Shown here piece after piece: positions 6,318 through 32,688 of a DNA stretch of 64,000 nt. Within the stretch, counting starts at the first letter, position 1; each line of letters opens with the position of its first letter. Origin of the DNA: Rhodospirillaceae bacterium. GTDB taxonomy: Bacteria > Pseudomonadota > Alphaproteobacteria > GCA-2746255. A model generated the notes under the pieces. That model was not told the origin of the DNA and searched no databases. It saw only the letters and a program-made list of their open reading frames with translations. The DNA lies in the NCBI GenBank assembly GCA_002746255.1, contig NVWO01000004.1, positions 76,774 through 140,773 of the forward strand, given 5' to 3'. Both the position numbers and the translations under genes were made by a program.

Positions 6318-8525
6318 ATGATTGTGAAGGACAGCGACATATCCTTTGATGTTTCGGCGAAGGGCCGTTCTTTCGGCCAGCGTTTCATGCAAGCGGTCGC
6401 CGGGAATTTGCTGGCCGAGCGCGAAAACTGGCAATTGTGGCTGCCGGTTGGCTTGGGCCTTGGGATTGCAATCTATTTTTCCCTGGGCTTTGAGCCATCG
6501 CTGTGGGTTGCCCTTCTGCTTGCAGGGGGCCTGTTTCTGGGTATCGTCCTTTTGTGGAATCGCGGTGTCTGGTTCATGCTTTTTCTTGCCATTGCCACCA
6601 TCGGCATTGGTTTTTCTGCAGCGAAAATACGCACGTTTCTTGTTGCTGCGCCATTTCTCGAGGAAGAAACCGGAATGGTTTCTATCGAAGGGAGAATCGC
6701 GCATTTTGATGTTCTCCCCAATGGCTTTCGCGTCACCCTTCACGACGCCCGGATCGAAGGAATTGCTCCGGAAGCCACGCCGGAAAATGTGCGCATTCGT
6801 CTTCGCAGGGATCAGCAGCGGGCACCCCTGCGTATTGGTGAATGGGTGCGCGTTCGCGGCATGCTTTTGCCGCCACGTGCACCGACGGCACCAGGGAATT
6901 TTGATTTTCAGCGCCACGCTTTCTTCAAAGGTCTAGGGGCCGTTGGCTTTGCCATCGGCCCCCTTGAAGCGGTTGCCGAGAAAAATGTCGCTGAGGCAAA
7001 TACGGATGATCGCCTCTTTAAAAGCGAAGTTGAAAAATCCCGCCAATGGATTTTTGATCGCGTCGTGGACGTGCTGCCAGGTCAAAGAGGGGCGGTTGCT
7101 GCCGCGCTCATGACTGGAAAGCGAGGGGCGATTGCCGAAGATGTGTGGCAGGCGATGCGGAATTCAGGCCTTGCCCATCTGCTCGCCATTTCCGGTCTGC
7201 ATATCGGCCTTGTTGCCGGTATTCTGTTTGTCGCCATGCGTGCGCTTCTGGCTTTGGTTGAGCCTCTGGCGCTGCGCTACCACATCAAGAAATGGGCTGC
7301 GGTCGTCGCACTTTTCGGGGCTTTCGGTTACCTCATTTTATCTGGGGGGACCGTTCCGACCCAACGCGCATTTTTGATGATTGGTTTGGTTCTGCTTGCC
7401 GTTCTGTTGGACCGGACGGGGATTTCCATGCGCCTGGTCGCCTGGGCGGCTGTTGTTATTCTTCTGTTGCAGCCAGACACCCTGCTTGGCGCGTCCTTCC
7501 AGCTTTCCTTTGCCGCCGTGATCGCTCTGGTTGCTGTCTACGAGGCCATTCGTCGGGTGTGGATCAGGAGAAAAGCGGCAGGTGGAGTGCTTCGCCGCGT
7601 CGGCCTTTACCTGGGGGGGGTCGGGCTGACGACCCTGGTTGCCGGCATGGCTACAGCGCCCTTTGCCGTTCAGCATTTCAACCGCTTTGCCGAATACGGG
7701 CTGGCGGCCAATCTGGTTGCCGTACCAATCACCGCCCTTTGGATTATGCCGTGGGCCGTTCTGGCGTTTCTCCTGATGCCGTTTGGCCTTGAACCGCTTG
7801 CCCTGGTTCCAATGGGGTGGGGCGTTAACGCCGTGATCGAGACGGCGAAGATAGTGGCGGGATGGCCGGGTTCCGTTGCCCTTCTACCATCCATGACGAT
7901 GGCGGGTCTGGCGACGTTTACCCTTGGGGGGCTGTGGCTTTGTCTTTGGCGGCAGCGGTGGCGTTATTTCGGGCTTGTTGGCATTGCCGCAGGGCTGGCG
8001 ACGATAGGGTTTTATCGGCCACCGGATATTCTTGTTTCCGAGAATGCGAAACTTTTCGCCGTACGGGCAGACGTGGACGGGTATCGCTTTTCCTCGCGGC
8101 GGGCGGCGCGGTTTTCCGGGCGGGACTGGCTGCGTCATGCGGGCGAAACGGATGTCCTGCCGTGGCCGAAGGAAGGGAAGAGCGAGGATGGCCGACTTGC
8201 CTGCGATAGTATGGGATGTATCTACCGCGTGCGTGGACAGATGGTTGCGCTCGTTTTCGAGCTTGGCGCCTTGGCCGAAGATTGCACCCTGGCCGACATG
8301 GTGATTAGCCGGGTGCCGGTACGTGACGGCGTTTGCCGGGGGGTTGATGTTGTGATTGACCGCTTCGACCTATGGCGAAAGGGCACACACGCAATTTGGC
8401 TTGATGAAGAGAAGGTGCGCATTCGCAACGTGCGTGACATGCGTGGGGAGCGACCGTGGGTGGGAGGCCCCAGAAAACGTGCCCGACGACGCGGGGCGAC
8501 GAAGGCACGCGTCGAAAAAAACTAG
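6318..8525 (+). CDS. comEC: ComEC/Rec2 family DNA internalization channel protein
   Basis: 735 aa polytopic membrane protein with the competence-domain HLLAISGLHIGLVAG motif. Contains an in-frame G8 homopolymer at 7613-7620. Confidence 0.85.
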   Translation: MIVKDSDISFDVSAKGRSFGQRFMQAVAGNLLAERENWQLWLPVGLGLGIAIYFSLGFEPSLWVALLLAGGLFLGIVLLWNRGVWFMLFLAIATIGIGFSAAKIRTFLVAAPFLEEETGMVSIEGRIAHFDVLPNGFRVTLHDARIEGIAPEATPENVRIRLRRDQQRAPLRIGEWVRVRGMLLPPRAPTAPGNFDFQRHAFFKGLGAVGFAIGPLEAVAEKNVAEANTDDRLFKSEVEKSRQWIFDRVVDVLPGQRGAVAAALMTGKRGAIAEDVWQAMRNSGLAHLLAISGLHIGLVAGILFVAMRALLALVEPLALRYHIKKWAAVVALFGAFGYLILSGGTVPTQRAFLMIGLVLLAVLLDRTGISMRLVAWAAVVILLLQPDTLLGASFQLSFAAVIALVAVYEAIRRVWIRRKAAGGVLRRVGLYLGGVGLTTLVAGMATAPFAVQHFNRFAEYGLAANLVAVPITALWIMPWAVLAFLLMPFGLEPLALVPMGWGVNAVIETAKIVAGWPGSVALLPSMTMAGLATFTLGGLWLCLWRQRWRYFGLVGIAAGLATIGFYRPPDILVSENAKLFAVRADVDGYRFSSRRAARFSGRDWLRHAGETDVLPWPKEGKSEDGRLACDSMGCIYRVRGQMVALVFELGALAEDCTLADMVISRVPVRDGVCRGVDVVIDRFDLWRKGTHAIWLDEEKVRIRNVRDMRGERPWVGGPRKRARRRGATKARVEKN

Positions 8526-11077: not shown

Positions 11078-11896
11078 TTACATCTCCGCAGTTTTGTTGC
11101 TGCCGGGTGGCGCGAGAATTGCCCTTGTGGCGGCGGTCACGTCAGCCTCGCGCATGAGGGCTTCGCCAATAAGAAAGCTTGTTGCGCCCACTTTCGCCAT
11201 GCGGGCAAGGTCTTTGGATGTTTTAAGGCCGCTTTCGCAGACGACGAGACGGTCCGAAGGCACTTTTTGTGCCAGAAATTCACCCGTTTCAAGGCTGACC
11301 TCAAGGGTGTCCAGATCCCGGTTGTTGATGCCGATCAGGCGCGATTTCATGGCCAGGGCACGGGTCAGTTCGCCTTCCGTATGGACTTCGATGAGAACGT
11401 CCATGCCAAGAATAAGTGCTGTTTTTTCGAGTATTAAGGCGGTTTCCTCATCCAGCGCAGCAAGTATTAGAAGCACGCAATCTGCACCAAGCGCACGGGA
11501 TTCGTAAATCTGGTAGGGATCGAGCATGAAATCCTTGCGCAGGGCCGGCAGGGCCGTTGCGTTTCGGGCCTGGGCGAGGTGTTCGTCGCGCCCCTGAAAC
11601 CAGGGCTCGTCCGTCAGCACGGACAGGCAGGTTGCGCCGCCGGCCTCGTAGGCAGCGGCGAGCGTGGCGGCATCGAAATCCTTACGGATCAGCCCCCGGC
11701 TTGGCGAGGCACGCTTGATCTCGGCGATCAGGCCATATTGCCTGGCTTGGCGCGCCGCCATGAGCCGTGCGAGGAAGCCGCGGGTGGGCGCGGCGGCTTC
11801 TGCCATCACGATCATCTCGGGCAGGGGCCGCTCTTCCAGACGGCGGGCGGTATGTTTGCGTTTTTCGGCGCAAATGCGGCTTAAAATTCCGGTCAC
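11078..11896 (-). CDS. trpC: indole-3-glycerol-phosphate synthase
   Basis: 272 aa. IAEIKRASPSRG and LLI motifs. Position in the trpCDG cluster. Confidence 0.9.
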   Translation of the reverse strand: MTGILSRICAEKRKHTARRLEERPLPEMIVMAEAAAPTRGFLARLMAARQARQYGLIAEIKRASPSRGLIRKDFDAATLAAAYEAGGATCLSVLTDEPWFQGRDEHLAQARNATALPALRKDFMLDPYQIYESRALGADCVLLILAALDEETALILEKTALILGMDVLIEVHTEGELTRALAMKSRLIGINNRDLDTLEVSLETGEFLAQKVPSDRLVVCESGLKTSKDLARMAKVGATSFLIGEALMREADVTAATRAILAPPGSNKTAEM

Positions 11897-12930
11897 GCGT
11901 CTTTTCCAGCGTTCGTGATTTCGACGAGTTTACGAAGGCTTGCCTGTGCCTGCCCACTATCAATGGCTTGTGCGGCAAGGGTCACGCCCTGCTTCAGGTT
12001 TCTGGCCTTTTCGGCAACGATCAAGGCGGCGGCGGCGTTGAGGAGGACAATGTCGCGGAAAGGTCCCGTTTTTCCATCCAGCAGCCGTTCGATTGCCCTG
12101 GCGTTCGTGCGCGCATTGCCACCTTTCAGCATTTCCGGTCGGGCACGGGGGAGGCCGGCGTCTTCCGGGACCACCTCGAAGCTGCGCACGCGACCAGAAG
12201 CAAGGGATGCCACAAAGGACGTCGTTGTTGTCGTCAATTCGTCGAGCCCGTCCTTGCCATGGACGACCCAGGCACGCGTCGTGCCCAGTTTTTTCAGCAC
12301 ACGCGCCATCGGAACGACCCAATCAGGCGAATAAACGCCAAGGAGTTGCCGTCTGGCACCCGCCGGGTTGGCCAACGGCCCCAGAAGGTTAAAAATCGTA
12401 CGCATGCCGAGTTGTTTTCGGGTTTCCGCCACATGGCGCATCGCCTGATGGTGGTGGGGCGCGAACAGAAAGCCGATCTTCGCCTGACGAAAAGCCTGGC
12501 GGATGCGCCCCGGTGTGGTCGTAAGATTGACGCCCAGGGCTTCAAGCACGTCGGCCGAGCCGCATTTCGAGGACAGAGCCCGATTGCCATGCTTGGCGAC
12601 GGGAACGCCGGCACCCGCGACAACGAGAGCCGCCGCCGTCGAGACGTTCAGGGTGCCCGAGGCATCGCCACCGGTGCCACAGGTATCGATGGCACCCGCC
12701 GGAGCCTGGATCGAAAGTGCCCTGGCGCGCAGCACCCGGGCGGCGGCGGTGATTTCCTCGACCGTTTCACCACGCACGCGCAGGCCCATAAGGAAGGCGC
12801 CGATTTCAGCCGGCGTGGCCGCGCCGGTCATCAAAGCCCGGAAGGCAGCAGAGGCCTCCTTCGCGTCAAGGGTTTTGCCGGTGGCTATTTTTGCCAGCAA
12901 GGGGTGAAGAACGCTTTTTCTTTTCGCCAT
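11893..12930 (-). CDS. trpD: anthranilate phosphoribosyltransferase
   Basis: Contains GTGGDASGTLNVSTAAALV. Start set at the internal Met MAKRKSVLHPLL; the ORF track extends to 12951. Confidence 0.9.
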   Translation of the reverse strand: MAKRKSVLHPLLAKIATGKTLDAKEASAAFRALMTGAATPAEIGAFLMGLRVRGETVEEITAAARVLRARALSIQAPAGAIDTCGTGGDASGTLNVSTAAALVVAGAGVPVAKHGNRALSSKCGSADVLEALGVNLTTTPGRIRQAFRQAKIGFLFAPHHHQAMRHVAETRKQLGMRTIFNLLGPLANPAGARRQLLGVYSPDWVVPMARVLKKLGTTRAWVVHGKDGLDELTTTTTSFVASLASGRVRSFEVVPEDAGLPRARPEMLKGGNARTNARAIERLLDGKTGPFRDIVLLNAAAALIVAEKARNLKQGVTLAAQAIDSGQAQASLRKLVEITNAGKDA

Positions 12931-13593: not shown

Positions 13594-16044
13594 ATGACAT
13601 CCAACGCGAAGGCGCAGCTTACGCCGAATGACCCGGCGAATGAAGGCCGGGAATTGTCCCTTGGCGTAAAAGGGATGACTTGCACCAATTGCGCGGGCCA
13701 TATCGAAAAAGCCCTTGGCCGGCTTGCCGGTGTCCTCAATGCGCGGGTTAATTTCACGATGGAACGTGCCGATATCCGTTTCGACCCAGACCGGGTTGAT
13801 CCTGTGGCAATCGTGAAGGCCATTCTGGACATGAATTACGAGGTGCCGCTGGTGTCGGTCGTGCTCAGGATTAACGGCATGACATGTGGAAATTGTGCAC
13901 ACACGATCGAAAAAGCGCTGAGGCGCGTTCCCGGCGTTCTTACCGCAAAGATCAATTTGGCGACGGAACAGGCTCTGTTGGAAGTGGCCCAGGGCCAGCT
14001 TGACGTAATGGCGTTGCGCAAAGCCGTGACGGCGGTGGGCTATGGCGCGACCTTTATCGACGACCCGGAAAACCGGGCGTCGGAGAACGAAAGCATTGAA
14101 GCGCGCCGCCGCCTTCACTGGCAGACCGGTTCTCTTATTGCCGCCATCCTGCTGTCCTTTCCCCTGGTTGCCCAGATGCTCGGCGACTTCGTAGGCCTTG
14201 GGTTCCATCTTTCGCCGATGGTGCAGATGGTTCTTGCCAGCTTTGTGCAATTTGGCATCGGCTGGCGTTTTTACCGCGCCGCCTGGGTGGCGCTTCGCTA
14301 CGGCAATGGCACAATGGACCAGTTGGTCGCGCTTGGAACGTCGGCTGCCTATGGGTTAAGCGTCACCCGGGTCCTTTGGCCGGAGACCGAAGGGGCGGAG
14401 GCGCTTTATTTCGAGGCATCGGCCATCATCCTTACCCTCGTTTTGCTCGGCAAATGGCTTGAAAGCCGTGCCAAGCAGGGAACGTCAGCCGCCATCCGGG
14501 CCTTGATGAAGCTTCGGCCCTCGGTGGCGAGGCTCTTGCGGAACGGTGAGGAGGTCGAGGTGCCAATCAATGCCGTGGTGGTTGGGGACGTTGTCCTGCT
14601 TCGCCCCGGGGAACGCGTGCCCGTCGATGGCGACATTCTTAGTGGTCAAAGCGAGATCGACGAATCGCTGATTACCGGAGAAAGCCAGCCGGTTGAAAAG
14701 GGAGAGGGTGCTTTCGTGACGGCGGGTTCCGTAAATGGTTCCGGGCTGCTTCACATCACGACAACGCGTATCGGCGCAGAGACAACCCTTTCGCGGATCA
14801 TCGCGTTGGTTCAAGGTGCGCAAGCCAGCCGGGCGCCGGTCCAGAAACTCGTTGACCGCGTGAGCGCCATCTTCGTCCCGATGGTGCTGGCCGCCGCCGT
14901 CTTTACACTTATGGCGCAATGGCTGTTTACGGGTGCGCCAGACGTTGCCGTGATTGCCGCCGTCTCGGTCCTGGTGATTGCCTGCCCTTGCGCCCTTGGC
15001 CTGGCAACGCCGACAGCCATCGTTGCTGGCATGGGGGCGGCAGCGCGCGGCGGTATTTTGATCAAGGACGTGGACGCCCTTGAGCGCATGCGCAAGGTAA
15101 CGGTGATTGCCCTCGACAAGACCGGAACCTTAACGGAAGGCCACCCGGCGGTTGCGGCCATCGCGCCGGTTGCGGGGGGCGACGAAGATGCACTCCTCTT
15201 GCTTGCCGCTTCGGCGCAACAGGGCAGCGAGCATCCCCTGGCGCGCGCGATATTGGATGCGGTGGGCGACAAGCCACTGAAACCCCTTGCGAGCTTTAAA
15301 AGCCTCACCGGGCGGGGTCTGGAAGCCGTCGTCGATGGCCAGCGTCTGTGGATTGGCAGTCGCAAACTGATGGCGGACAGCGGCGTTGCAATTGCAAGCC
15401 TGGATTCCAAGGCGCAGGAATTGGAAACCCAGGGCGCGACCGTCATGTGGATTGCCCATGGGGAAGGCCGGCTTCTCGGCTTTATCGCCGCCAGCGATCC
15501 GATTAAGGCAACGGCGGTAGAAGCTATCGCCCGCCTCAAAAAACTTGGGCTCACAGTCATTATGATGACCGGCGACAATCAACGTACGGCCGCCGCCGTT
15601 GCCAGCAAGCTTGGCATCGATCGGGTCATGGCTGAAATTCTTCCAGAACAAAAAATTACCGAAGTTGACAGGCTTCGGCGGGAAGGCGAGGTCGTTGCCA
15701 TGGTTGGCGACGGCATTAACGATGCGCCGGCGCTGGCGGCTGCCGATGTCGGGATCGCCATGGGGACTGGGACGGACGTTGCGATTGAAGCGGCGGGTGT
15801 AACCTTGATGCGCGGCGAGCCGCTTCTGCTTCCGGAAACCGTTCGGATCTCGCGGGCGACGGTTGCAAAAATCTGGCAGAATCTTTTTTGGGCCTTCATC
15901 TACAACGTCATCGGAATTCCCCTTGCGGCGTCAGGCATGTTAAGTCCAATCCTTGCCGGTGGTGCGATGGCGTTCAGCAGCGTCAGCGTCGTTTCAAATT
16001 CATTGTTGCTGACGCGTTGGCGCCCTGTGAAAAAACAAATATGA
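13594..16044 (+). CDS. copA: copper(I)-translocating P1B-type ATPase
   Basis: 816 aa. Two N-terminal HMA domains (GMTCTNCAGHIEKAL and GMTCGNCAHTIEKAL), the CPC transmembrane motif (ACPCALGLATP), DKTGTLT and GDGINDAPAL. Confidence 0.9.
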   Translation: MTSNAKAQLTPNDPANEGRELSLGVKGMTCTNCAGHIEKALGRLAGVLNARVNFTMERADIRFDPDRVDPVAIVKAILDMNYEVPLVSVVLRINGMTCGNCAHTIEKALRRVPGVLTAKINLATEQALLEVAQGQLDVMALRKAVTAVGYGATFIDDPENRASENESIEARRRLHWQTGSLIAAILLSFPLVAQMLGDFVGLGFHLSPMVQMVLASFVQFGIGWRFYRAAWVALRYGNGTMDQLVALGTSAAYGLSVTRVLWPETEGAEALYFEASAIILTLVLLGKWLESRAKQGTSAAIRALMKLRPSVARLLRNGEEVEVPINAVVVGDVVLLRPGERVPVDGDILSGQSEIDESLITGESQPVEKGEGAFVTAGSVNGSGLLHITTTRIGAETTLSRIIALVQGAQASRAPVQKLVDRVSAIFVPMVLAAAVFTLMAQWLFTGAPDVAVIAAVSVLVIACPCALGLATPTAIVAGMGAAARGGILIKDVDALERMRKVTVIALDKTGTLTEGHPAVAAIAPVAGGDEDALLLLAASAQQGSEHPLARAILDAVGDKPLKPLASFKSLTGRGLEAVVDGQRLWIGSRKLMADSGVAIASLDSKAQELETQGATVMWIAHGEGRLLGFIAASDPIKATAVEAIARLKKLGLTVIMMTGDNQRTAAAVASKLGIDRVMAEILPEQKITEVDRLRREGEVVAMVGDGINDAPALAAADVGIAMGTGTDVAIEAAGVTLMRGEPLLLPETVRISRATVAKIWQNLFWAFIYNVIGIPLAASGMLSPILAGGAMAFSSVSVVSNSLLLTRWRPVKKQI

Positions 16045-16991
16045 GCAAACGAAAAAAGAAGGCCAGGGCCTGGAAAACTTGGAAAGCCAGGGCCTGGAAG
16101 CCGGTCCGGATGGCAGTTTTTTTTCTGGGCATTGGTCTTGTAACGGGTGCTGGCCTGGCGCTTTTTTTTGTGGACAGGCCCGCCACACCAAAAATTGCGG
16201 CGGTGACGGCTAAACTGGCCGACACGACCGACACAGCTTCCAAAAAAACGAAGCCCCGACCGCAATGGGTGCGTGAAGCCGTTCTCGAACCGGCCATTAA
16301 AGGGCGGCCAATGATCGCCATCATTCTGGATGATCTTGGGATGAGCCGTGCGCGCACTACGGACGCGATCAAGCTTTCCGCGCCTCTCACTTTGGCCTTC
16401 CTGCCTTACGCAAACGGGCTTTGGGAACAAACCGCAGCGGCCCGCGCCGCCGGGCATGAACTGCTGATCCACGTTCCCATGGAGCCCCAGGGGAAGAACG
16501 GCGATCCCGGGCCGCATGCGCTGATGGTTCATATGACCCAGGATGAAATTCTGGAGAATCTTTCCTGGGACTTTGACCGCTTCGAACACTATGTCGGCAT
16601 CAACAACCACATGGGCAGCAAATTCACGAAAGACCCGGATAGGCTGGCGATGGTTTTTCGGGAATTAAAGGCGCGCGGTCTTCTTTTCATCGATTCCCGG
16701 ACGACCGCCGATACCGTCGCAAAGAAACTAGCGCAGGAAATTGGCGTCCCCTTCGCCGAGCGACAGGTTTTTCTCGACAATTTCAGGTCTGCGGAAAATG
16801 TGAGGGAACGCCTGGAAAAACTGGAATCGATTGCCAGAAGGGACGGGGCGGCAATCGGGATTGGGCACCCTCACAAGGTAACGCTGGCGGCGTTACGGGA
16901 ATGGCTGCCGACGCTTTTGGAAAAAGGATTCGTTCTGGTTCCGGCAAGCACGGTTGTACGCCGGCAGCTTAAAGACGCGGCGGGTCGTTAG
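16041..16991 (+). CDS. divergent polysaccharide deacetylase family protein (YibQ-like), N-terminal membrane anchor
   Basis: Internal ATG of ORF 15888..16991 (MSKRKKKARAWK... followed by a TM helix). Start overlaps the copA stop (ATGA). The last ~60 nt are duplicated at 20961-21020. Confidence 0.75.
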   Translation: MSKRKKKARAWKTWKARAWKPVRMAVFFLGIGLVTGAGLALFFVDRPATPKIAAVTAKLADTTDTASKKTKPRPQWVREAVLEPAIKGRPMIAIILDDLGMSRARTTDAIKLSAPLTLAFLPYANGLWEQTAAARAAGHELLIHVPMEPQGKNGDPGPHALMVHMTQDEILENLSWDFDRFEHYVGINNHMGSKFTKDPDRLAMVFRELKARGLLFIDSRTTADTVAKKLAQEIGVPFAERQVFLDNFRSAENVRERLEKLESIARRDGAAIGIGHPHKVTLAALREWLPTLLEKGFVLVPASTVVRRQLKDAAGR

Positions 16992-17254
16992 GAGCTTTTT
17001 TTCCGGCCACCGCCTGCATAGTGGATGGCTTCCTCGGCGGCGCGCAAAAGCGCCATCGCCTTGTTGCGGCTTTCCTGATATTCGGCTTCCGGATCGCTGT
17101 CTGCAACAACCCCGCCGCCGGCCTGCACATACATGGTCCCATCTTTCACGATGGCCGTGCGCAGAGCGATGCAACTGTCCATGGTGCCATTGGCCGCAAA
17201 ATAACCAACGCAGCCGCCATAGATGCTTCTGCGGTCCGGTTCCAGCTCTTCGAT
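16932..17254. repeat. left copy of 323-bp direct repeat (3' end of yibQ-like gene + intergenic + 3' end of trpE)
   Basis: Aligns without gaps to 20961-21283 (offset 4029), with about 14 mismatches counted by eye (~96% identity). Confidence 0.9.
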
Positions 17255-17257
17255 CAA
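16988..17257 (-). pseudogene. truncated 3' fragment of anthranilate synthase component I (trpE' remnant, last ~88 codons only)
   Basis: Its translation aligns residue-for-residue with the C-terminus of the intact TrpE at 21017..22540 (EELEPDRRSIYGGCVGYF...HYAGG), with a few substitutions. It has no N-terminal 80% and lies inside the left 323-bp direct repeat. Confidence 0.8.
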
Positions 17258-17259
17258 AT

Positions 17260-18093
17260 CTAATTTTTGGTATTCGCGGCATTATATCGTCCTCTTATGG
17301 CAACCTTCAAACCCACAGCAAAAAGCGGCAACAGTCCCAACACGGAGACCATTGTTGAGCCGACGGGCAAGTCTGCGTCAAACGACAGCCATAGGCCTGC
17401 TATGCTGCCCAATATTCCCAACCCCCATCCCAGAAATAGGCGGTGTAGCAAAGATTCGGCAAGGATAGAGGCGCTGAATACTGGAATGATCAGGAAGGCA
17501 AAGACCAGCAAGACGCCGGCGACATTAACCGCAAGCGTAATGACAGCAGCGAATGAGGCGAAAAACAGAAATTCCCATAAAAATTTTGGTTGACCCGAGC
17601 CCTTTGCATCAAACGAGAGGGCGTAGAAGCGCTTGCGATAAACCAGGTGCAGCAAGCTGAGTAGGGCGTACGCCCCTGCCACCATCAAGATTTCGTCCCA
17701 GCGGACCCAAAGGATATTGCCGTTAAACAAGGAGTTGAGTTCTTCCATGCCTTGCGTTGTGCGGCTCAGGATAACGATGGATAGTGCGGTGGTTAGCACA
17801 TAGACGCAACCGATGATGACTTCGCGTGTCGTCTTGCCGCGAACTCGGCGCAAGCCTGCGAAGGCGAACGCCGCCGCCAAGGTTGCGGCAAACGCATATA
17901 GCTGAGCGCGGTTTCCGTGGGCTTCTTCGCCAAGCAGGAAAGCAACGGAAATCCCAAGTGCGGCAACTTGGGCCAGTGCAAGATCGACAAAGATTATGCC
18001 GCGCGCCAACACATGCAGGCCAAGATAGGTGTGGGTGAAAACCATCAAGGCGCTTAAAGTGAAGGCCGGGAGCAGAATTTGCCAAGCTTCCAT
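17260..18093 (-). CDS. ABC-3 family metal (Zn/Mn) ABC transporter permease, ZnuB/MntB-like
   Basis: Internal Met of ORF 17260..18201 (MEAWQILLPAF...). Polytopic TM protein with the conserved ABC-3 pattern. Starts 1 nt after the upstream SBP gene. Confidence 0.85.
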   Translation of the reverse strand: MEAWQILLPAFTLSALMVFTHTYLGLHVLARGIIFVDLALAQVAALGISVAFLLGEEAHGNRAQLYAFAATLAAAFAFAGLRRVRGKTTREVIIGCVYVLTTALSIVILSRTTQGMEELNSLFNGNILWVRWDEILMVAGAYALLSLLHLVYRKRFYALSFDAKGSGQPKFLWEFLFFASFAAVITLAVNVAGVLLVFAFLIIPVFSASILAESLLHRLFLGWGLGILGSIAGLWLSFDADLPVGSTMVSVLGLLPLFAVGLKVAIRGRYNAANTKN

Positions 18094-18094
18094 A

Positions 18095-19006
18095 TCACTC
18101 TCCCACTGCGTCTTCAAGCGCTTCGACAATGCGGTCAAACAGCACAAAATAAGTGGTGATATCATCTGCAGACCCGACCGATTGTGGCAACACGGCAACA
18201 TTGATGCCTGTCTGTTCGCTCAAGTATCGCGCCGAACGGCGCTCGTAATAGGGCTCCATAATAAGTACGCGGGTTTGCTCTTGCTTGATGCGCGTTATCA
18301 GCCTGCTCAAGGACGCAGCACTGGGGGCTATGCCCGGTTTTGGTTCCACCTCACCAACAATCCTAAAGCCGAAAAAGTCAGCTAGATAATCGAAAGATTT
18401 GTGATAGGCGATCACCGGCCTGCCCTCTAAATACGCCAATCGCACGCGCCATTCGGACTGCTTAACTTCCATTGCTTTTGCAAAATGCTCAAACCGGCGT
18501 TGGTAATCAACTGCGTGCGAAGGATCCAACTCGCCGAGGCGGGTGGCAATCGCTTGCGCCATGCGCACGCCATTGCGCGGGTCCAGCCAGTAATGGGGGT
18601 TGCCTTTGGCGTGAACATCCCCCAAGGCTCGCGAGACGGATACCGCTTGTTTGCCGAGAAGCGGTACTGTCGTCGATAAATCTAAATATCCCGGGTTCCC
18701 AGGCAATGTATTAGAGTTCCGCGACGACTGTAGTAGTGGTGGCAGCCAGCCGATCTCCATGTCGGCACCGACGATTAACAACAGATCGGCGCGAAAGACC
18801 TTGCGGATCATACTAGGTTTGGCAACCGCAAAATGGGGGTCACGCGTGCCAGGTGTCAGGCTCTCCACAGTTACTTGGTTGCCGCCCACTGCTTCTGTTA
18901 AGGCGGCCAGGTCCTGGGTCGTTGTCACGACGCGTAACGCGGCGTGACTTATCGACGGTGCAGTCAAAAACAGCACACTGAACAACGTGCCTAAAATTTG
19001 TCTCAT
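18095..19006 (-). CDS. periplasmic metal-binding protein of the ZnuA/TroA (cluster A-I) family
   Basis: 303 aa with a signal peptide (LFSVLFLTAPSISHA) and the metal-site region DVHAKGNPHYWLDP. Preceded by a strong AGGAG SD. Confidence 0.85.
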   Translation of the reverse strand: MRQILGTLFSVLFLTAPSISHAALRVVTTTQDLAALTEAVGGNQVTVESLTPGTRDPHFAVAKPSMIRKVFRADLLLIVGADMEIGWLPPLLQSSRNSNTLPGNPGYLDLSTTVPLLGKQAVSVSRALGDVHAKGNPHYWLDPRNGVRMAQAIATRLGELDPSHAVDYQRRFEHFAKAMEVKQSEWRVRLAYLEGRPVIAYHKSFDYLADFFGFRIVGEVEPKPGIAPSAASLSRLITRIKQEQTRVLIMEPYYERRSARYLSEQTGINVAVLPQSVGSADDITTYFVLFDRIVEALEDAVGE

Positions 19007-19015
19007 GACAGGCTC

Positions 19016-20416
19016 CTAAAATATGTGTGCGGCATGTCTGCCCAGACTGAACTCAAATTGCAGCCATATGCTGTCTGCCGTTCTGTCTTGCAAATGCGTA
19101 GCCCAATCACGGTTATATTGCAGTCGCACTTTGCTGAATTCTGTTGGATACCAAGTGAGATTGGGCGACAAGCGGTTGCGGGTGTCGCGCAGCGGATCAA
19201 GGGACGTCTGTCCTTGCGCTGTGGCATAGTCCCACCTCAATCCAGCTACCCAGCCCGGTTTGAAGCCCCATAAAACCTGAGTGAATAGTCCCCAATCTTT
19301 TAGCACTTCGCGTATAGGATTGCTTGCATCGCCCGCCTCATACCGCCGGTGCAAAGCCTCCGTGTGCCATGAGACGAACGGGGATCCACGGTGTGTCCGC
19401 CTGGCCTGCCATTTCAGAAAAATATCCGCACCGAGTATTCTGGTGTTAGTGCTGGTGCCGCTGGCGTTGGGGCCGAGCACACTTGAAAGACCCAGATTGG
19501 CGCTCACTGTATCTGACAAATCGATGCCGTTTAACCAGCGCGCGCTGTATAGGAGGTCGCCGAAACCGCGCGCATTGCGGTCAATGAGAGTATGGCCCCC
19601 CACCTCTTCAGCTAGCTCACTAAGGAAACTGGTGACAGTTTCGCCTTTGGCGTTTTGCACACCGACATATAGTTCCGAGTACCAATCCGTGGGCATCAAC
19701 CAAGCGACGCGCGCGCCTTGGCTGCGCAAGCCATCACCACCAAAAAAGCGCGAAAGGACGACCGGCTGATCAACAAAACTCCAGGTGTGAGGGTGTTGCG
19801 GATTCTGACGACCGAATTCGGTATAAAACTGGCCGCCTTTGACCTGTAATCCCCAAGGCAGGCTTCTGGTGGTGAAGAAGGCCTCTTCCAGTTCGACGAC
19901 TGTTTCGCCGTCGGCGTCGATTTGGAAAATGATGTTAGCCTGAGCGTTAAAGTAGGGATCGACTGCAGCGCCAATTGTGAGTTCCACATTCTGTACCGTG
20001 AAACCGTTCTGATTGGGATCGTGAGCGCCCGCCTGAAGACCTTTCAGCGCGGCGTTGTCAACGCTGGAACCACCACTTGCAAACAGGCTGGATAGACCCA
20101 ACTGCAAGTCTCCGTTGCCGGGGGGTGTTGTGCTAGGCAGCGTTGTGACTGGGGGTGGTGAAGCTGCAGCAGGCCGGGCTTCCGATACTTGGACAGGTTT
20201 TTTGCTGGCCGATGATTCCAGCTCCTTAAGACGCTGTGCCAACGCCGCGATCTGGTTTTCATAAGCTTGCTTCATATTGTGAAATTGTTGCCTGATTTCG
20301 GATATTTGCGCGCCAAGTATGTCTACCTCTTCATTGGCCATCGCCATCGGCGCATGGAGAGCCTGCGCGCCTATGATGGCTGCTCCGAACATGGAGCGAA
20401 AATACGGACAAGGCAT
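19016..20416 (-). CDS. outer-membrane beta-barrel protein (porin-like) with N-terminal coiled-coil segment
   Basis: 466 aa. Signal peptide, then ~60 aa of heptad-like sequence (QISEIRQQFHNMKQAYENQIAALAQRLKELE), a Pro/Thr linker and an alternating-hydrophobic beta-strand body ending in a C-terminal Phe (AAHIF). First gene of the operon with the two genes above. Confidence 0.7.
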   Translation of the reverse strand: MPCPYFRSMFGAAIIGAQALHAPMAMANEEVDILGAQISEIRQQFHNMKQAYENQIAALAQRLKELESSASKKPVQVSEARPAAASPPPVTTLPSTTPPGNGDLQLGLSSLFASGGSSVDNAALKGLQAGAHDPNQNGFTVQNVELTIGAAVDPYFNAQANIIFQIDADGETVVELEEAFFTTRSLPWGLQVKGGQFYTEFGRQNPQHPHTWSFVDQPVVLSRFFGGDGLRSQGARVAWLMPTDWYSELYVGVQNAKGETVTSFLSELAEEVGGHTLIDRNARGFGDLLYSARWLNGIDLSDTVSANLGLSSVLGPNASGTSTNTRILGADIFLKWQARRTHRGSPFVSWHTEALHRRYEAGDASNPIREVLKDWGLFTQVLWGFKPGWVAGLRWDYATAQGQTSLDPLRDTRNRLSPNLTWYPTEFSKVRLQYNRDWATHLQDRTADSIWLQFEFSLGRHAAHIF

Positions 20417-20463
20417 GGCTAGTCCCCTCTTTTGATTGGAATATGCAGAACCACTGATACGGA

Positions 20464-20479
20464 GTCTCGAAAACGAGAC
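20464..20479. promoter_or_regulatory. inverted repeat GTCTCG-AAAA-CGAGAC in the promoter region of the OMP/ZnuA-like/ZnuB-like operon (candidate metalloregulator operator)
   Basis: Perfect 6-bp arms 48-63 nt upstream of the OMP start codon (minus strand). It is the only obvious dyad in the operon's upstream region. Confidence 0.35.
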
Positions 20480-20514
20480 ATGGTTCAGTTGTCAGCAGAT
20501 TGGAGGAAAATCAA

Positions 20515-20859
20515 TCAAAGTAGGGGAGGTGCGCGTGCGCGCAGAAGGCTTTTAGGGAGTTGCCTATGTGGTTGTGTAGTGGGCGGAGGTTCAACAGAAG
20601 CAATTTTTTGAATCGGGGCGGTTAGCGATAGAATGGGTGGCAGGTCCACAGACAGTTGGCCGAGCCGGCAGATTTGACATCCATCAACTAGGCTTGAATG
20701 ATCGGTAACATCACTTAGATCGTGGGATGCAACGTGCAATGCTGCAAAGAGCAGCGTAAACACCATCACCAGCCGGAGGCGGCGGAGCACGTTTATGTTA
20801 GGGCTAAACACGTTTCTCAATTCAAACCAAATAATAATGGTAACTTTTGCAGGAATCAA
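20515..20859 (-). CDS. hypothetical small exported protein (TTG start), questionable
   Basis: 114-aa ORF with a signal-peptide-like segment RRLRLVMVFTLLFAALHVAS and a His/Asp-rich start to the mature part. No recognisable family. Lies in the lower-GC right end of the insertion. Confidence 0.25.
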   Translation of the reverse strand: MIPAKVTIIIWFELRNVFSPNINVLRRLRLVMVFTLLFAALHVASHDLSDVTDHSSLVDGCQICRLGQLSVDLPPILSLTAPIQKIASVEPPPTTQPHRQLPKSLLRARAPPLL

Positions 20860-20960
20860 AGCCTAACCTAACGGCAGAACTCTAATGCTTGGCACCCTCT
20901 TTTGAGGGCAGTGATGATTTACATCAAGATCGGCGGTCCAGAGGAAAAGTTTAGGGGCTT

Positions 20961-21283
20961 GTTCTGGTTCCGGCAAGCACGGTTGTACGCCGGCAGCTTA
21001 AAGACGCGGCGGGTCGTTAAGAGCTTTTTTTCCGGTTCCCGCCGGCATAGTGGATGGCTTCCTCGGCGGCGCGTAGAAGTGCCATCGCCTTGTTGCGGCT
21101 TTCCTGGTATTCGGCTTCCGGATTGCTGTCTGCAACAACCCCGCCGCCGGCCTGCACATACATGGTTTCATCTTTCACGATAGCCGTGCGCAGAGCGATG
21201 CAACTATCCATGGTGCCATTGGCCGCAAAATAACCAACGCAGCCGCCATAGATGCTTCTGCGGTCCGGTTCCAGCTCTTCGAT
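20961..21283. repeat. right copy of 323-bp direct repeat (carries a yibQ' 3' fragment and the genuine trpE 3' end)
   Basis: See left copy. Similarity ends exactly where the trpE' remnant gains a spurious start (left) and where the intact trpE continues (right). Confidence 0.9.
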
Positions 21284-22540
21284 GATTTCCATTGCGCGTA
21301 CCTTTGGCGCACCCGAGACGGTGCCGGCGGGAAAGCCTGCAATGAGCGCGTCAATCGCATCGAATTTCGGATCAAGCCGGCCTTCAACGTTCGAAACAAT
21401 GTGCATAACGTGAGAATAATATTCGATGATCATTTCTTCAGTTACATGAACGCTGCCAATCTCGGCGACGCGGCCAACGTCGTTCCGGCCAAGGTCAAGC
21501 AACATCAGATGTTCAGCCCGCTCTTTCGGGTCGGCGAGCAGGTCTTCCGAGAGCTGCCGGTCTTCTTCGGCATTTTTTCCACGCCGCCGCGTTCCGGCGA
21601 TCGGACGGATTGTTACCACGCCGTCGCGAACCCGGACCAGAATTTCAGGGCTTGAGCCGACGACGGCGAAGTCCTGGAAGTCGAGAAGAAACAGGAAAGG
21701 TGAGGGGTTCAGCCGTCGCAGCGACCGGTAGAGCGCAATGGGCGGTAGCGGGAAGGGAACCTGAAAACGCTGCGAGGGGACCACCTGGAAAACGTCACCA
21801 GCCCGAATGTAGGCCTTCGCCCGTTCGACCATTCCGTGATACGCCTCGCGGGTCTGATTCGAAACCGGAACTGGTGTCTCGGTGGATGGCGGCGCGCTCA
21901 TCTTTTCATGGGAAAGGCTTTCGTCAAGGGTCACAATGCATTGCTGAAGACGTGCTTCTGCCTTCGCATAGGCGGCCTTCGCATCGAGTTCTTTTTTTGG
22001 GCGAACCGGCGTGACCAGGATCGCCGTGTCTTCAATGTTGTCGAAGATCACCATTACCGTCGGACGAACGAACATGCCATCGGGCAAGCCGGAAATGCCT
22101 GCCGGGTTTGTGGCGGGCAGGTCCTCCATTAATCGGACCATGTCATAGCCCATATAGCCGACGAGGCCTGCGGCCATTGGCGGCATCGCGTCAGGCAGGT
22201 CGATGGCAGACTTTGCAAGCAAGTCGCGGAAGGAAGCGAACACGTCGCCTTCAATGGGGCGAAAGGCGGTGGCATCGACATCGGCATTTTCGTTAATCTC
22301 TGCCCGACCACCGAAGCAACGCCAAATGACATCTGGACGGGTGCCGATAAAAGAATAACGTCCGCGCGTGGCACCACCTTCAACGGATTCGAGTAGAAAA
22401 CCGTTCGGCGAATGTCCGGCAAGTTTCTGCATGGCCGAAACGGGGGTTTCCAGATCGGCAATCAACTTCGTCCACACGACCTGTGGCCGGTTGGCGGTGT
22501 AGTTTTCTGAAAAATCTCCGAAGGAGGGATGGACGGACAT
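21017..22540 (-). CDS. trpE: anthranilate synthase component I
   Basis: 507 aa chorismate-binding enzyme. The last ~88 codons are duplicated at 16988..17257. Confidence 0.92.
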   Translation of the reverse strand: MSVHPSFGDFSENYTANRPQVVWTKLIADLETPVSAMQKLAGHSPNGFLLESVEGGATRGRYSFIGTRPDVIWRCFGGRAEINENADVDATAFRPIEGDVFASFRDLLAKSAIDLPDAMPPMAAGLVGYMGYDMVRLMEDLPATNPAGISGLPDGMFVRPTVMVIFDNIEDTAILVTPVRPKKELDAKAAYAKAEARLQQCIVTLDESLSHEKMSAPPSTETPVPVSNQTREAYHGMVERAKAYIRAGDVFQVVPSQRFQVPFPLPPIALYRSLRRLNPSPFLFLLDFQDFAVVGSSPEILVRVRDGVVTIRPIAGTRRRGKNAEEDRQLSEDLLADPKERAEHLMLLDLGRNDVGRVAEIGSVHVTEEMIIEYYSHVMHIVSNVEGRLDPKFDAIDALIAGFPAGTVSGAPKVRAMEIIEELEPDRRSIYGGCVGYFAANGTMDSCIALRTAIVKDETMYVQAGGGVVADSNPEAEYQESRNKAMALLRAAEEAIHYAGGNRKKSS

Positions 22541-22549
22541 CGCCCTGGT

Positions 22550-24433
22550 CTAGTACGTAGCTTCGATGGCCGAACGATTGGTCTCGACCGGATGTTTCTT
22601 TTCGAGAGCCGCGATATATTGGTCGAGAATGTCGTTTGCCAGAGACTGCAGCAGGTTTGCGCGCACGCTTTCAAGCGCTTTGATGTCTTTGTCGATGTCC
22701 GCTTTCCGAATTTCCTTTATCAGGGCCACGGTGTAACCGTTTTCAGATGGCGCCTGCACCACCTCTCCGACCTTTGCGGCGAAAATTTTTCGGGTCAGTT
22801 CATGGGAAATTCCAGAATTCAAATCTTGCGCATCGCGCGTTAAGGGGTCGGAGGTTCTTATTTGAAAACGTCGATTGCCGGCAAGTTTTTTTAGGCTTGT
22901 CCCGGTTTTTGTCTTTTCGACAATTTCCGTTGCCATTTTTTCAGCCTTGCGGTTCCGTTCTTCCGCCTGCCAATCCGCAATGACCTGTTTGCGGATGTCA
23001 TCAAGTGGCTGCAAGGCCGCTGGCGTAATAGCATCGACCCGCAGAATGAAAAGCCGGCCGTCCTTCGTTTCAACCAACGTGCTTTCCTCACCATCGGCCG
23101 TGTTAAAAGCGGTCGAAAGGAATGCATCGATATCCGGGAGAGTCGCGACCGCCTTTCCGTCGGGGGTTTTCCCCTCGGCGCTTACATTTTCGAAGTGAAG
23201 CGTGGGAAGGTTCAATACCTTTCCGGCTTCTTCAAAGGTCGCACCACTGGCAAGACGGTCTTCAATCTGTGTCGAAATGGCATAAAGGCTGTCGATCGCA
23301 CGATTGTGTGCGATGTCCTCCGCTATCTTGTCGCGAACGGCCTCAAATTTAGGGGTCGCGCCAGGCGCAATCGTTTTCACGCGCAGAATATGCCAGCCGA
23401 ACGGACTTTTTATTGCCTTGCTGACCGCGCCCTTTTCCAGACGGAAGGCCGGTTCGGAAAGTTCCGGGATAAGGTCTTTGCGGGCGTGGCTTCCAAGGGA
23501 AAGGTTGGCACCCTGTTCAACTTTTCCGACCTCTATGGCAACGATCTCGAACGATTTGCCTTCCTCCAGCAACGTTTCTGCGCGTGTTGCGCTTTCTTCA
23601 TCCGAGAGAAGGATTTGTTCGATTTCACGGCGTTCCGGGGTGGAGATTTCGCCAAGGCGCGCTTCGTATTCTTCCCGAAGTTCCGTTTCCGTAATTTCGA
23701 CTTCGCTACGGAAGTCGTCGGGCGAGACGACGATCGCCGTTATTTTGCGGTATTCCGGCGACACGTACTGTTCCGCATGCTCGCTGTGATAGGCAGCAAG
23801 AGTTTCCGGCTTCGGTCTTCCGACGCCCTTCATCTTGTGAGCGGGGACCGACAATGTCGCGACGACCCGCTCTTCTTTCCGGAAATCAAAGAGAAGAGTC
23901 CCCAGGCGTTCCGGCACGACGGTTCCGTGGGTAATTGCTTGCATTAATTGATTGCGTTTGATGCCCCGGCGAATAAGGCTCGCAAATTGCTCTTCGGTGT
24001 AACCGTTGCTTCGAAGCAGGTCGTAAAAAACCTGCTTGTCGAATTCACCAAAGCGATTGCGAAAGGCGGGCGTCTCCTTAATCCGTGCGGCAACCAGCCC
24101 ATCACTGGGGAAAATGCCAAGATCTCTGGACTCCAGATCAAAAATAACTTCAGAGATCAAGCGCTCAAGAGCACGATCAAGAAGCCCCAGCCCGCGGGCC
24201 TGTTCCGCAGTGAGAGAGTTCTCGAAAAGATGCTGAATGCGGTCCATCTCGCGCCGAAATTCTCGGGAAAGCTGGTCGCTGGTAATTTTGACGTCACCGA
24301 CCTTGGCAATGGTCGCCTCGCGTCCACCGCGAAAAACGTCGCCTATTCCCCACACTGCGAAACTCAGGACAAGGAGAAGCAGCAACCCTTTGACGACCCA
24401 AGAGGTCGTGCGTTTGCGGATCGTTTCAAGCAT
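22550..24433 (-). CDS. ppiD: periplasmic folding chaperone / peptidylprolyl isomerase PpiD (SurA-like)
   Basis: 627 aa with an N-terminal TM anchor (WVVKGLLLLLVLSFAVWG), a SurA-N-like region and a parvulin domain (GWHILRV). Confidence 0.8.
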   Translation of the reverse strand: MLETIRKRTTSWVVKGLLLLLVLSFAVWGIGDVFRGGREATIAKVGDVKITSDQLSREFRREMDRIQHLFENSLTAEQARGLGLLDRALERLISEVIFDLESRDLGIFPSDGLVAARIKETPAFRNRFGEFDKQVFYDLLRSNGYTEEQFASLIRRGIKRNQLMQAITHGTVVPERLGTLLFDFRKEERVVATLSVPAHKMKGVGRPKPETLAAYHSEHAEQYVSPEYRKITAIVVSPDDFRSEVEITETELREEYEARLGEISTPERREIEQILLSDEESATRAETLLEEGKSFEIVAIEVGKVEQGANLSLGSHARKDLIPELSEPAFRLEKGAVSKAIKSPFGWHILRVKTIAPGATPKFEAVRDKIAEDIAHNRAIDSLYAISTQIEDRLASGATFEEAGKVLNLPTLHFENVSAEGKTPDGKAVATLPDIDAFLSTAFNTADGEESTLVETKDGRLFILRVDAITPAALQPLDDIRKQVIADWQAEERNRKAEKMATEIVEKTKTGTSLKKLAGNRRFQIRTSDPLTRDAQDLNSGISHELTRKIFAAKVGEVVQAPSENGYTVALIKEIRKADIDKDIKALESVRANLLQSLANDILDQYIAALEKKHPVETNRSAIEATY

Positions 24434-31317: not shown

Positions 31318-32688
31318 ATGGCGAAAAAACTTCTGATGCAGGCCTTAAGCCCGACGATGGAAGAGGGAACCCTTGCCCGCTGGGTAAAAAAGGAAGGCGA
31401 GAAGATTGCCATTGGCGATGTGCTGGCAGAAGTCGAAACGGACAAGGCAACGGTCGAAATGGAAGCCCCGGAAGAAGGCGTTTTGGGAAAAATTCTGGTG
31501 CCGGAAGGTACCGAAAACGTCAAGGTGAACACGCCCATCGCCTGGCTTCTGGAAGAGGACGAGGATGCCCTGAAAGAAACCGACGTTCAGGAACATGCTT
31601 CGGAACCCGAAGACGTTCCTGTGCCGACGACGCCGGCGTTGGTGGCAAAACCGGCACCTGTCGCAGAACCCATATCCGCCACAGGCGCTACCGATATGGG
31701 CGAGACGATAACCCAAACTGTCCGCGATGCCCTGCGCGACGCGATGGCCGAAGAAATGCGCCGGGATAAAGATGTTTTCCTGATGGGCGAAGAGGTCGCC
31801 GAATATCAGGGGGCCTATAAAATAAGCCAGGGCCTGCTTGAGGAATTCGGGGCGATGCGGGTCGTCGACACGCCGATCACCGAGATGGGATTTGCCGGTC
31901 TTGGTGTGGGTGCCGCCTTCGCAGGGCTTCGCCCGATCATCGAGTTTATGACGTTCAACTTTGCCATGCAGGCGATTGACCATCTCGTCAATTCCGCTGC
32001 CAAGACGCTCTACATGACGGGGGGGGCGGTATCGGTTCCCATTGTTTTTCGTGGGCCAAACGGTCCGGCAGCCCGTGTCGCCGCCCAGCATTCCCAATGC
32101 TATGCCAGCTGGTATGCCCATGTGCCGGGGTTAAAAGTCGTAGCCCCGTATTCCGCTGCTGACGCAAAGGGCTTGCTGAAATCGGCCATCCGCGATCCCA
32201 ACCCGGTTGTCTTTCTGGAGAACGAAATTCTCTATGGACAGAGCATGGCGGTTCCCATCGATACGGATTTTCTTGTGCCCATCGGCAAAGCGCATGTGGT
32301 GCGCGAGGGGCGGGACGTAACGATCACCGCCTTTTCGCGAATGGTGGGGTTGGCCCTTGACGCGGCGGAGGAATTGCAAAAAGAAGGCATCGACGCCGAA
32401 GTCATCGATTTACGCACGATCCGCCCTCTGGATTTTCCAGCCATCGTCCAATCTGTGCAAAAGACGAACCGTCTGGTCAATGTCGAGGAGGGCTGGGCCT
32501 ATTCCGGCATCGGCTCTGAAATTTCCGCCCGCGCCATGGAGGAACTTTTTGATTACCTGGACGCCCCCGTTGGGCGTATCGCCGGTGCTGACGTGCCCAT
32601 GCCCTATGCCGCCAATCTTGAAGCGCTGGCGCTGCCGAGTGCCGAAAAAATCGTCACGGCGGTAAAAGCCGTCTGTTACCAGGACTGA
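31318..32688 (+). CDS. pdhB: pyruvate dehydrogenase E1 component beta subunit with N-terminal lipoyl domain
   Basis: 456 aa. N-terminal lipoyl domain ([13 protein letters not shown]...VETDKATVE), an Ala/Pro linker, then the transketolase-like beta subunit. Confidence 0.9.

Follow-up and report, generated by a model that had tools for sequence, protein, structure and literature searches.

How can a foreign operon become lodged between two convergent genes whose stop codons overlap without damaging either of them? The question is raised by the junction between trpE and a yibQ-like polysaccharide deacetylase gene in a 64,000-nucleotide stretch of a Rhodospirillaceae bacterium (GenBank assembly GCA_002746255.1, contig NVWO01000004.1, positions 76,774 to 140,773 of the forward strand), hereafter the window, to which coordinates refer unless another contig is named. 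At this junction an insert carrying a four-gene cassette, predicted to serve metal uptake, is bracketed by two 323-bp direct repeats that duplicate the 3' ends of both genes. The answer that we prefer, with a probability of roughly 0.55, is a homology-guided duplicative insertion of DNA from a diverged relative. The feature is no new kind of element; it is a member of the known class of homology-dependent duplicative insertions, or 3'-end displacements.

The duplicated trpE/yibQ junction had been described in an earlier note made from the letters alone, and it was borne out by pairwise alignment, a repeat finder and self-BLAST. The two copies, at 16932-17254 and 20961-21283, align over 323 nucleotides (nt) with 14 mismatches and no indels (95.7% identity by pairwise alignment and repeat finder; 95.67%, E=7.6e-148, by self-BLAST of the whole window). 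They are offset by 4,029 bp, with 3,706 bp of DNA between them, and self-BLAST detected no second long near-identical repeat in the 64-kb window. The borders are sharp, as Smith-Waterman comparison past either end of the repeats gave no similarity above that of shuffles. The spacer that the earlier note had placed between the two genes does not exist; their stop codons overlap in the plus-strand TTAG at 16988-16991, where TAG is the stop of the yibQ-like gene and TTA the complement of the trpE TAA. The left copy contains the intact yibQ-like 3' end (last 60 nt) and an in-frame trpE remnant of 89 codons, and the right copy contains a 20-codon yibQ remnant and the 3' end of the intact trpE (last 89 codons), the insertion point in trpE being the boundary between codons 418 and 419. 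The features of the junction are the following (aa, amino acids).

16041..16991, plus strand: intact yibQ-like divergent polysaccharide deacetylase gene (PF04748, E=3e-80; called as 316 aa in contigs L081 and L170)
16932..17254, no strand: left copy of the 323-bp repeat, with alleles of resident (native) appearance that match the outgroup L151 at most variable sites
16988..17257, minus strand: displaced 3' remnant of trpE, 89 codons, frame intact (PF00425 positions 192-257, E=7e-23)
20961..21283, no strand: right copy of the 323-bp repeat; its distal part (equivalent to 16991-17078 in the left copy) is an old divergent allele, here called R-type
20961..21020, plus strand: yibQ remnant, the final 19 codons and the stop, now TAA (repeat alignment)
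21017..22540, minus strand: intact trpE, anthranilate synthase component I, 507 aa (TIGR00564, 579 bits, above cut-off; PF00425 and PF04715)

Both genes stay whole because the junction was duplicated; a plain insertion between overlapping stop codons could not have left them so.

Whether the structure exists in the cell was assessed from other assemblies. The exact 466-aa protein encoded by the insert is found on three further contigs (L081, L082 and L083). The first of them (ENA, 41 kb) shares 99.935% identity with the window over 21.4 kb, with all 14 mismatches inside the repeats and with two repeat copies that are identical to each other, each a mosaic. The other two, from JGI (L082) and Logan (L083), are 100% identical pieces that end inside the repeats, L082 starting at 17178 and L083 spanning 17225-20990. 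The three contigs may share the sample of the window, and thus show no more than that the assemblers agree on the junctions and disagree on the assignment of variants to copies. Contigs that break at the repeat, and two identical mosaic copies in one assembly against 14 differences in another, show that assemblers struggled here, and would suit the view that the window is a chimeric path, or that a free 4-kb circle, with k-mers in common with an uninterrupted chromosome, was mis-threaded into it. However, a strain from another metagenome, diverged by about 4%, has both repeats and the two junctions on an ungapped 26-kb contig (L171, JGI 3300033050; 96.0% identity over 16 kb). In the assembly GCA_017113105.1 (Rhodospirillaceae bacterium AH-315-P19) the two junctions lie on separate contigs, the left one on L173 (97%) and the right one on L174 (95.4%), and the left junction, identical to the nucleotide, occurs in two more strains (L169, 95%; L172, 96.7%). 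A Pfam scan of the insert gave no replication gene, and cargo and flanks have diverged together. Because the junctions recur in L171, GCA_017113105.1, L169 and L172, an assembly artefact is excluded for practical purposes, and its probability is very close to nil.

The ancestral state was sought among 160 trpE loci from genomes and metagenomes, in which ppiD-trpE / yibQ-copA is a common gene order. In the nearest outgroup (L151; TrpE 95% identical in amino acids, DNA 87%), trpE and yibQ abut with overlapping stops and without interruption, and the junction is likewise uninterrupted in two more distant relatives (L001 and L002), which supports the proposal of the earlier note. The cargo was absent from all of the 160 loci. 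Between the window and L171, divergence at four-fold-degenerate sites is 4.6-7.5% in the cargo and 5-14% in the flanking genes (7.7% overall), and at all sites 2.5-4.8% in the cargo and 3.6-6.1% in the flanks. Since the cargo has diverged as much as its flanks, one old insertion is indicated, a single event that postdates the separation from the L151 lineage, predates the divergence of these strains and was followed by vertical inheritance. A recent acquisition by this genome does not hold, as at least four other strains of 95-97% identity, from other samples, have these junctions as well and the cargo has co-diverged with the flanks. The ancestral structure with identical repeats that the earlier note had set against its own proposal is thus partly borne out, but at the level of the species only and with repeats that are non-identical.

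The same trpE/yibQ junction has received other DNA elsewhere. In the closest complete genome (L003, OZ252220.1; TrpE 79%), it is occupied by a composite IS630-type transposon, in which two 100%-identical 1,142-nt IS630-type (DDE_3) copies at 11521-12662 and 14752-15893 surround an amidohydrolase-like gene, and several relatives carry 1-5 kb of unrelated DNA at this place. The junction is thus a permissive spot.

The origin of the two copies can be read from their variants, which were compared among six left copies, four right copies and the outgroup L151. Alleles specific to the right copy at 16991-17078 are common to the right copies of the window, L081, L171 and AH-315-P19; the right copies of L171 and AH-315-P19 show no difference from one another, and in their yibQ remnant 5 of 59 sites depart from the functional yibQ tail. 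The left copies of the window and L169 retain outgroup-like alleles. The old difference between copies amounts to about 10% and is limited to the distal 147 nt (equivalent to 16932-17078), the gene-internal 176 nt being identical; this proximal identity is seen in nearly all strains. Within the trpE frame the differences affect 8 codons synonymously and 3 non-synonymously (P=0.00035 against random placement with the same transition/transversion mix), and this mostly synonymous pattern indicates that they arose in functional genes. The non-synonymous residues of the R-type allele occur in other TrpE proteins. Moreover, the unconstrained trpE remnant stays outgroup-like and the changes sit on the functional trpE copy, the reverse of what decay in place would lead one to expect. 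The divergent sites come within 12 nt of the border between repeat and cargo (16943), too near for a later homologous replacement. It is therefore most likely that the divergent alleles arrived physically linked to the cargo, although the five sites in the yibQ remnant may instead reflect local decay. In-situ divergence of once-identical copies was rejected as the sole cause of the distal block, as it is the constrained copy that bears the changes, which are for the most part synonymous and extend up to the cargo border. The earlier proposal that one copy came from a related, non-identical genome thus survives for the distal part of a single copy, the one that completes trpE, which resembles the allele of a diverged relative.

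These observations also bear on a two-step local origin, in which the 323 bp would first have been duplicated in tandem by slippage or unequal sister exchange, the cassette would then have been inserted illegitimately at the neutral joint, and the differences between copies would have followed by mutation, imports and conversion. Three observations would suit such a history: where stop codons overlap an insertion has no neutral point, and nothing but a duplicated junction would be tolerated as a landing site; the two copies do not differ over the proximal 176 nt; and about 100 nt of spacer at one joint are without a traced source. However, two rare events would have had to coincide in their nucleotide positions, and a bare duplicated junction lacking the cargo was seen in none of the roughly 160 loci. 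It also leaves unexplained some nine mostly synonymous changes in the last 30 codons of the functional copy beside an outgroup-like remnant, as well as the divergent sites 12 nt from the cargo border. A two-step local origin is consequently considered improbable.

After the insertion the two 323-bp copies evidently exchanged patches by gene conversion. Both copies of the window have the derived states 16953G and 16958A, which are not seen in L169, L171 or the outgroup, and R-type patches occur in left copies, at 17007-17015 in L169 and at 17007-17078 in L171 and L172. The divergence of the trpE remnant between strains is 3.4%, against 7.7% at neutral sites, and nearly all of it represents allele swapping; the dead segments that adjoin the remnant differ by 9-12% between strains, the spacer 20860..20960 being neutral-like at 11.9%. 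The reading frame of the remnant is intact in every strain, as seen in L081, L169 and L170. A further five sites at 17095-17177 are private to the right copy of the window (also in L082) and absent from L081, which is explained by a very recent import or else by strain heterogeneity together with ambiguous phasing; an exact database look-up of the TrpE of the window returned no record, its 3'-end alleles being unique to this assembly. The number of differences between copies ranges from 14 in the window to 8 in L171, partly at other sites, and 0 in L081. The 4% divergence on which the earlier note had drawn is, in consequence, a mosaic of the roughly 10% distal block (147 nt), the five assembly-private sites and the gene-conversion patches, and is neither a clock nor a donor distance.

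Pfam and NCBIfam scans of the insert open reading frames (ORFs), together with motif searches, gave the following features.

17255..20960, minus strand: insert of 3,706 bp with a four-gene cassette, co-oriented with and downstream of trpE
17260..18093, minus strand: permease of the ABC-3 family of metal transporters, 277 aa (PF00950, E=7e-29; 75% identical to the Thiohalobacter permease P0200)
18095..19006, minus strand: ZnuA-type periplasmic metal-binding protein, 303 aa (PF01297, E=1e-52; sub-threshold NCBIfam matches to AztC and MntC)
19016..20416, minus strand: outer-membrane-type protein, 466 aa, with a signal peptide, a coiled coil and about 16 predicted beta strands (no Pfam family)
20464..20479, no strand: perfect 16-nt palindrome GTCTCGAAAACGAGAC in the 98-nt gap between the upstream ORF (uORF) and the outer-membrane gene (read off the sequence)
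20515..20859, minus strand: CruR/DUF2946-like uORF, 114 codons (motifs; Pfam PF11162 below cut-off)
20860..20960, no strand: spacer between the cassette and the right repeat, without clear similarity to other cassettes upstream of about 20885 and with none to yibQ

The Pfam and NCBIfam scans revealed no integrase or transposase among the insert ORFs, and an inverted-repeat scan gave no terminal inverted repeats, as the earlier note had reported. The lower GC content described there is real (53.2% against 55.9% for the window, within the lowest 2.6% of 3.7-kb windows) but mild, and GC at third codon positions is barely different. An Rfam scan of 15500-23000 at E<=0.1 gave no match to an RNA family, and promoter and terminator scans returned the same counts as shuffles and were uninformative.

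The foreign character of the operon, also claimed in the earlier note, is borne out by the best relatives of its proteins, which are gammaproteobacterial at 70-80% identity. The 466-aa outer-membrane protein has 5,341 homologues, the best named of them in Gammaproteobacteria, and the permease likewise has thousands of homologues with gammaproteobacterial sequences as best named relatives. With their counterparts in Thiohalobacter sp. IOR34 the outer-membrane protein, ZnuA and permease share 70-75% identity (70% for the outer-membrane protein, 75% for the permease); other named Gammaproteobacteria among the best relatives are Sulfuriflexus and Cycloclasticus. The identical order of the four genes occurs in Thiohalobacter and in three metagenomic contigs, always without an ABC (ATP-binding cassette) ATPase (cassette coordinates: window 17260-20859; L084 7591-11097; L086 1471-4926; L167 409-3938; L168 1374-4829). 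Nucleotide homology to the closest independent cassette (L167, 80%) spans 17271-20822 by BLAST, and by inspection the similarity to other cassettes extends to about 20885, so that the unexplained DNA at the cassette borders is at most 16 nt on one side and some 70-100 nt on the other. With the same gene order elsewhere, the cargo is a complete, widespread, foreign cassette of gammaproteobacterial type. No direct repeats were found around the homologous cassettes in L084, L086, L167 and L168, which argues that the cassette itself does not generate repeats.

The permease runs about 8 codons beyond the stop of its L167 counterpart (window 17260-17300 against L167 3920-3960), a 1-nt difference having abolished the TAA, and owing to this lost TAA its ORF ends 5 nt from the trpE remnant. 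The ORF of the remnant begins 3 nt past the permease stop, and by this closeness it could be translated.

The first gene of the cassette gives an indication of its regulation. The uORF has a hydrophobic N-terminal segment (judged by eye), CQIC at residues 61-64 and RAPP at residues 109-112, with 44 residues between the two motifs and 2 after RAPP, and these motifs are conserved in L084, L085 and L171, including the Thiohalobacter copy. Against PF11162 it scores 18.0 bits (E=0.005), below the gathering cut-off of 23.7. The hallmarks of the copper-responsive CruR/DUF2946 uORF have been described in Bordetella (PMC9426467), and the small ORF shows all of them. The cargo resembles the CruR operon bp2923-bfrG-bp2921 in the position of this gene as the first, in its export segment, CXXC motif and C-terminal RAPP, in the spacing between the motifs (44 residues here, 45 in Bp2923), and in an outer-membrane gene that follows after a long gap, 98 nt in the window. 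In the Bordetella operon, however, the outer-membrane component is a TonB-dependent transporter, and here it is a 466-aa protein not of TonB type, accompanied by a ZnuA/ABC-3 pair without ATPase. An AlphaFold model of this protein, built on a 22-sequence alignment, had a mean predicted local distance difference test (pLDDT) score of 42, and its helix and strand pattern was used, not a fold search. The palindrome in the 98-nt gap may belong to the attenuation or termination signal expected of a CruR-type leader. Compared with cluster A-I metal ABC importers of the ZnuABC/MntABC type, the cassette has the binding protein and the ABC-3 permease and lacks the ATPase of the operon; a cognate ATPase gene was absent from the cassette of the window and from every homologous cassette examined (L084, L086, L167, L168 and L170). 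Taken together, these features suggest that the cassette is an uncharacterised, probably copper-regulated uptake module.

How such a cassette could have entered is approached here through the polarity of the alleles. By comparison with L151, and from the sharing of right-copy alleles among strains, the incoming allele is the new trpE 3' end and the resident end lies downstream of the cargo. The pathway, the form of the incoming DNA and the donor are inferred. The cassette entered once, in the common ancestor of a species-level marine Rhodospirillaceae clade that includes this metagenome-assembled genome (MAG) and AH-315-P19. The incoming DNA would derive from a relative about 10% diverged, in which the cassette already stood beside a trpE 3' end and a 59-nt yibQ tail, and host homologous recombination would have been addressed by the trpE/yibQ homology. 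Two forms may be envisaged: in the first (Campbell type) a circular molecule would recombine by one crossover, and in the second (3'-end displacement) trpE would provide a homologous anchor and the far end of the cassette would be joined illegitimately. In either case the incoming 3' end would complete trpE, the resident 3' end would be pushed downstream as the 89-codon remnant attached to the intact yibQ; exchange between the 323-bp copies by gene conversion has followed. A circular form would have a junction reading …CTCTTCGAT, then the repeat, then GTTCTGG…, joined to both cargo ends.

Integration of the Campbell type is familiar from suicide plasmids, where the insert is flanked by direct repeats of the homologous fragment, and where a fragment of a gene end leaves one gene intact. 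The locus is similar in that the insert lies between direct repeats of a segment which is single-copy and uninterrupted in L151, L001 and L002, and it differs in having no vector backbone or replicon and no reciprocal chimerism, and in being a natural event fixed in a clade. A homology-dependent, Campbell-like insertion, the proposal of the earlier note, remains the best class of explanation, but the reciprocal chimeras that belong to it in the strict sense were not seen, so that either early gene conversion, which erased the reciprocal part, or a one-sided mechanism other than Campbell integration must be assumed. A one-sided anchor with an illegitimate join fits a foreign allele in one copy at least as well as a Campbell crossover, as a proximal part that is resident in both copies is the expectation of the former. 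The present data do not tell the two forms apart, and both stay conjectural. In transformation-generated merodiploids a donor fragment that bridges sister chromatids is reported to be able to create duplications (PMC3784515), and the one-sided form may have involved such bridging. At 6318-8525 of the window, on the plus strand, a 735-aa ORF corresponds to an L171 gene, next to lexA, that is annotated DUF4131 and Competence (ComEC/Rec2 type), so that the lineage has a channel for DNA uptake; a ComEC-like gene 9 kb away makes DNA uptake plausible.

Several points weigh against a homology-guided insertion of diverged DNA. An empty site was not found in the same species, in which the species-level yibQ protein cluster has 3 members, all occupied or too short, and a scan of metagenome_contigs with the exact 30-mer 17225-17254 gave 0 matches in a collection that does not contain these samples. 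Neither a donor genome nor a circular form was found, there being no circular contig among those that bear the cargo. Under strict Campbell integration the left copy should have incoming sequence in its proximal part, and this reciprocal chimerism is not seen. At the permease side the joint (within 17255-17270) has no clear microhomology. The polarity itself depends on an outgroup that is 13% diverged and on small counts, and within the sample of the window the assignment of variants to copies varies with the assembler.

Transposition was excluded as a source, there being no transposase and no inverted repeats, and a 323-bp duplication in place of the short (2-15 bp) target duplications of transposons; the earlier note had rightly considered the repeat far too long for one.

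Comparable structures were looked for by self-BLAST of all fetched loci, a small sample of about 2.4 Mb chosen around trpE, and three integrase-free cases with imperfect repeats of 146-343 bp were obtained: the trpE case described here (unit of 4.0 kb), a second one at trpE (L063, 5.5 kb) and one at tpiA (L056, 2.6 kb). In L063, a Sphingomonadales MAG, repeats of 343 nt and 93% identity at 11174-11516 and 16702-17041 contain the trpE 3' end and enclose a 5.2-kb operon of fatty-acid type (thiolase, acyl-CoA synthetase, acyl-CoA dehydrogenase and TetR) without integrase. An independent contig (L146) breaks inside a repeat of the L063 type, and in polarity both L063 copies are 97.5-98% identical to an uninterrupted relative (L113). 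The uninterrupted relatives of L063 (L113, L050 and L053) also lack the adjacent gene for a 635-aa trypsin-like peptidase. In L056, repeats of 146 nt and 92% identity at 4525-4670 and 7107-7252 start at the tpiA stop codon, and the cargo consists of a TylF-like methyltransferase and a 467-aa protein without assigned function, again with no integrase. These cases hint that integrase-free duplicative insertion is not rare. A wider claim, that recombinase-free, homology-addressed duplicative insertion is a recurrent route for operon-sized cargo at the 3' ends of housekeeping genes in Alphaproteobacteria, is for now a speculative one, with the odds well against it. If it were true, the cassette would by virtue of its flanking repeats stay open to RecA-mediated excision as a circle, the circle could be re-inserted into naive relatives via ComEC-dependent transformation or a gene transfer agent, and a cassette with its address tag would be a minimal mobile unit.

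Other repeats in the same data are of a different kind. A 125-nt intergenic element of 94% identity occurs at 4369-4493 and 9607-9730 of L156, a distant relative, with one copy just downstream of trpE. In the window, adjacent 325-nt segments of 85% identity (62375-62698 and 62738-63061) lie inside a 578-aa ORF (61543-63279, minus strand) and represent an internal domain duplication, and 238-nt segments of 78% identity (31331-31568 and 32706-32943) stand at the starts of the consecutive ORFs 31318-32688 and 32693-33955, where they are probably the shared N-terminal domain of paralogous genes.

The known system closest in topology is the insertion of e14 or phage 21 in icd of E. coli, in which the inserted DNA provides a slightly different, mostly synonymous 3' end, the gene remains functional and the copies can recombine (PMC13626634). 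The trpE locus shares with it an insertion inside the 3' end of a housekeeping gene, a replacement 3' end beside the gene and, at the far end, a pseudogene made of the displaced 3' end. However, e14 is a prophage of 15 kb that brings its own site-specific integrase and is excised under SOS induction, whereas here there is a cargo of 3.7 kb only and no recombinase, and the repeat extends 60 nt beyond the stop codon into the convergent neighbour. The insert might nevertheless be a remnant or a non-autonomous relative of such an element, with an integrase that was lost or acts in trans (cis-mobilisable) and a core site in the identical, gene-internal part of the repeat. The order icd / e14 / icdC, in which the gene is completed by the element and the displaced C-terminal pseudogene lies at the far end (PMC13626634), is matched here, 77-176 nt of gene-internal sequence are identical in both copies, and L063 offers a second case at the trpE 3' end. 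Yet no integrase, excisionase, phage gene or gene of an integrative and conjugative element was detected in the insert or in about 10 kb on either side, and as the cassette fills the insert to about 25 nt at one end and about 100 nt at the other, a deletion would need to have trimmed the mobility module almost exactly. In addition, the border of the L063 repeat in trpE is some 45 nt off, with no shared core, and L063 and L056 are also without integrases. An origin from an e14-type element is on balance doubtful.

Homology-guided insertion from a diverged relative finds a parallel in Rhs and type VI secretion system (T6SS) effector-immunity loci, for which 3'-end displacement through illegitimate recombination that is facilitated by homology is proposed (PMC5361080). 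The likeness lies in the homology anchor in the conserved upstream part of the gene, the new 3' end that comes with cargo, the old 3' end orphaned downstream and the lack of an integrase. In those loci, however, the genes are polymorphic toxin genes, the variable 3' ends are under diversifying selection and arrays are built, whereas at trpE both 3' ends encode essentially the same protein, the event was single and the copies were kept similar by gene conversion.

The locus offers a clean natural example of a foreign operon wedged between two genes with overlapping stop codons, with neither gene damaged, by duplication of the junction and, presumably, ordinary homologous recombination in place of an integrase or transposase. 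As five strains and an outgroup are available, the empty ancestral site, the polarity of the event and the later concerted evolution of the copies can be read directly. Repeat-flanked islets of this kind break short-read assemblies and let variants land in the wrong copy, and the identity of their repeats should therefore not be used as a clock. Islands without an integrase can still bear a recognisable insertion scar. Finally, the cargo points to a widespread, uncharacterised and probably copper-regulated uptake cassette without an ABC ATPase.

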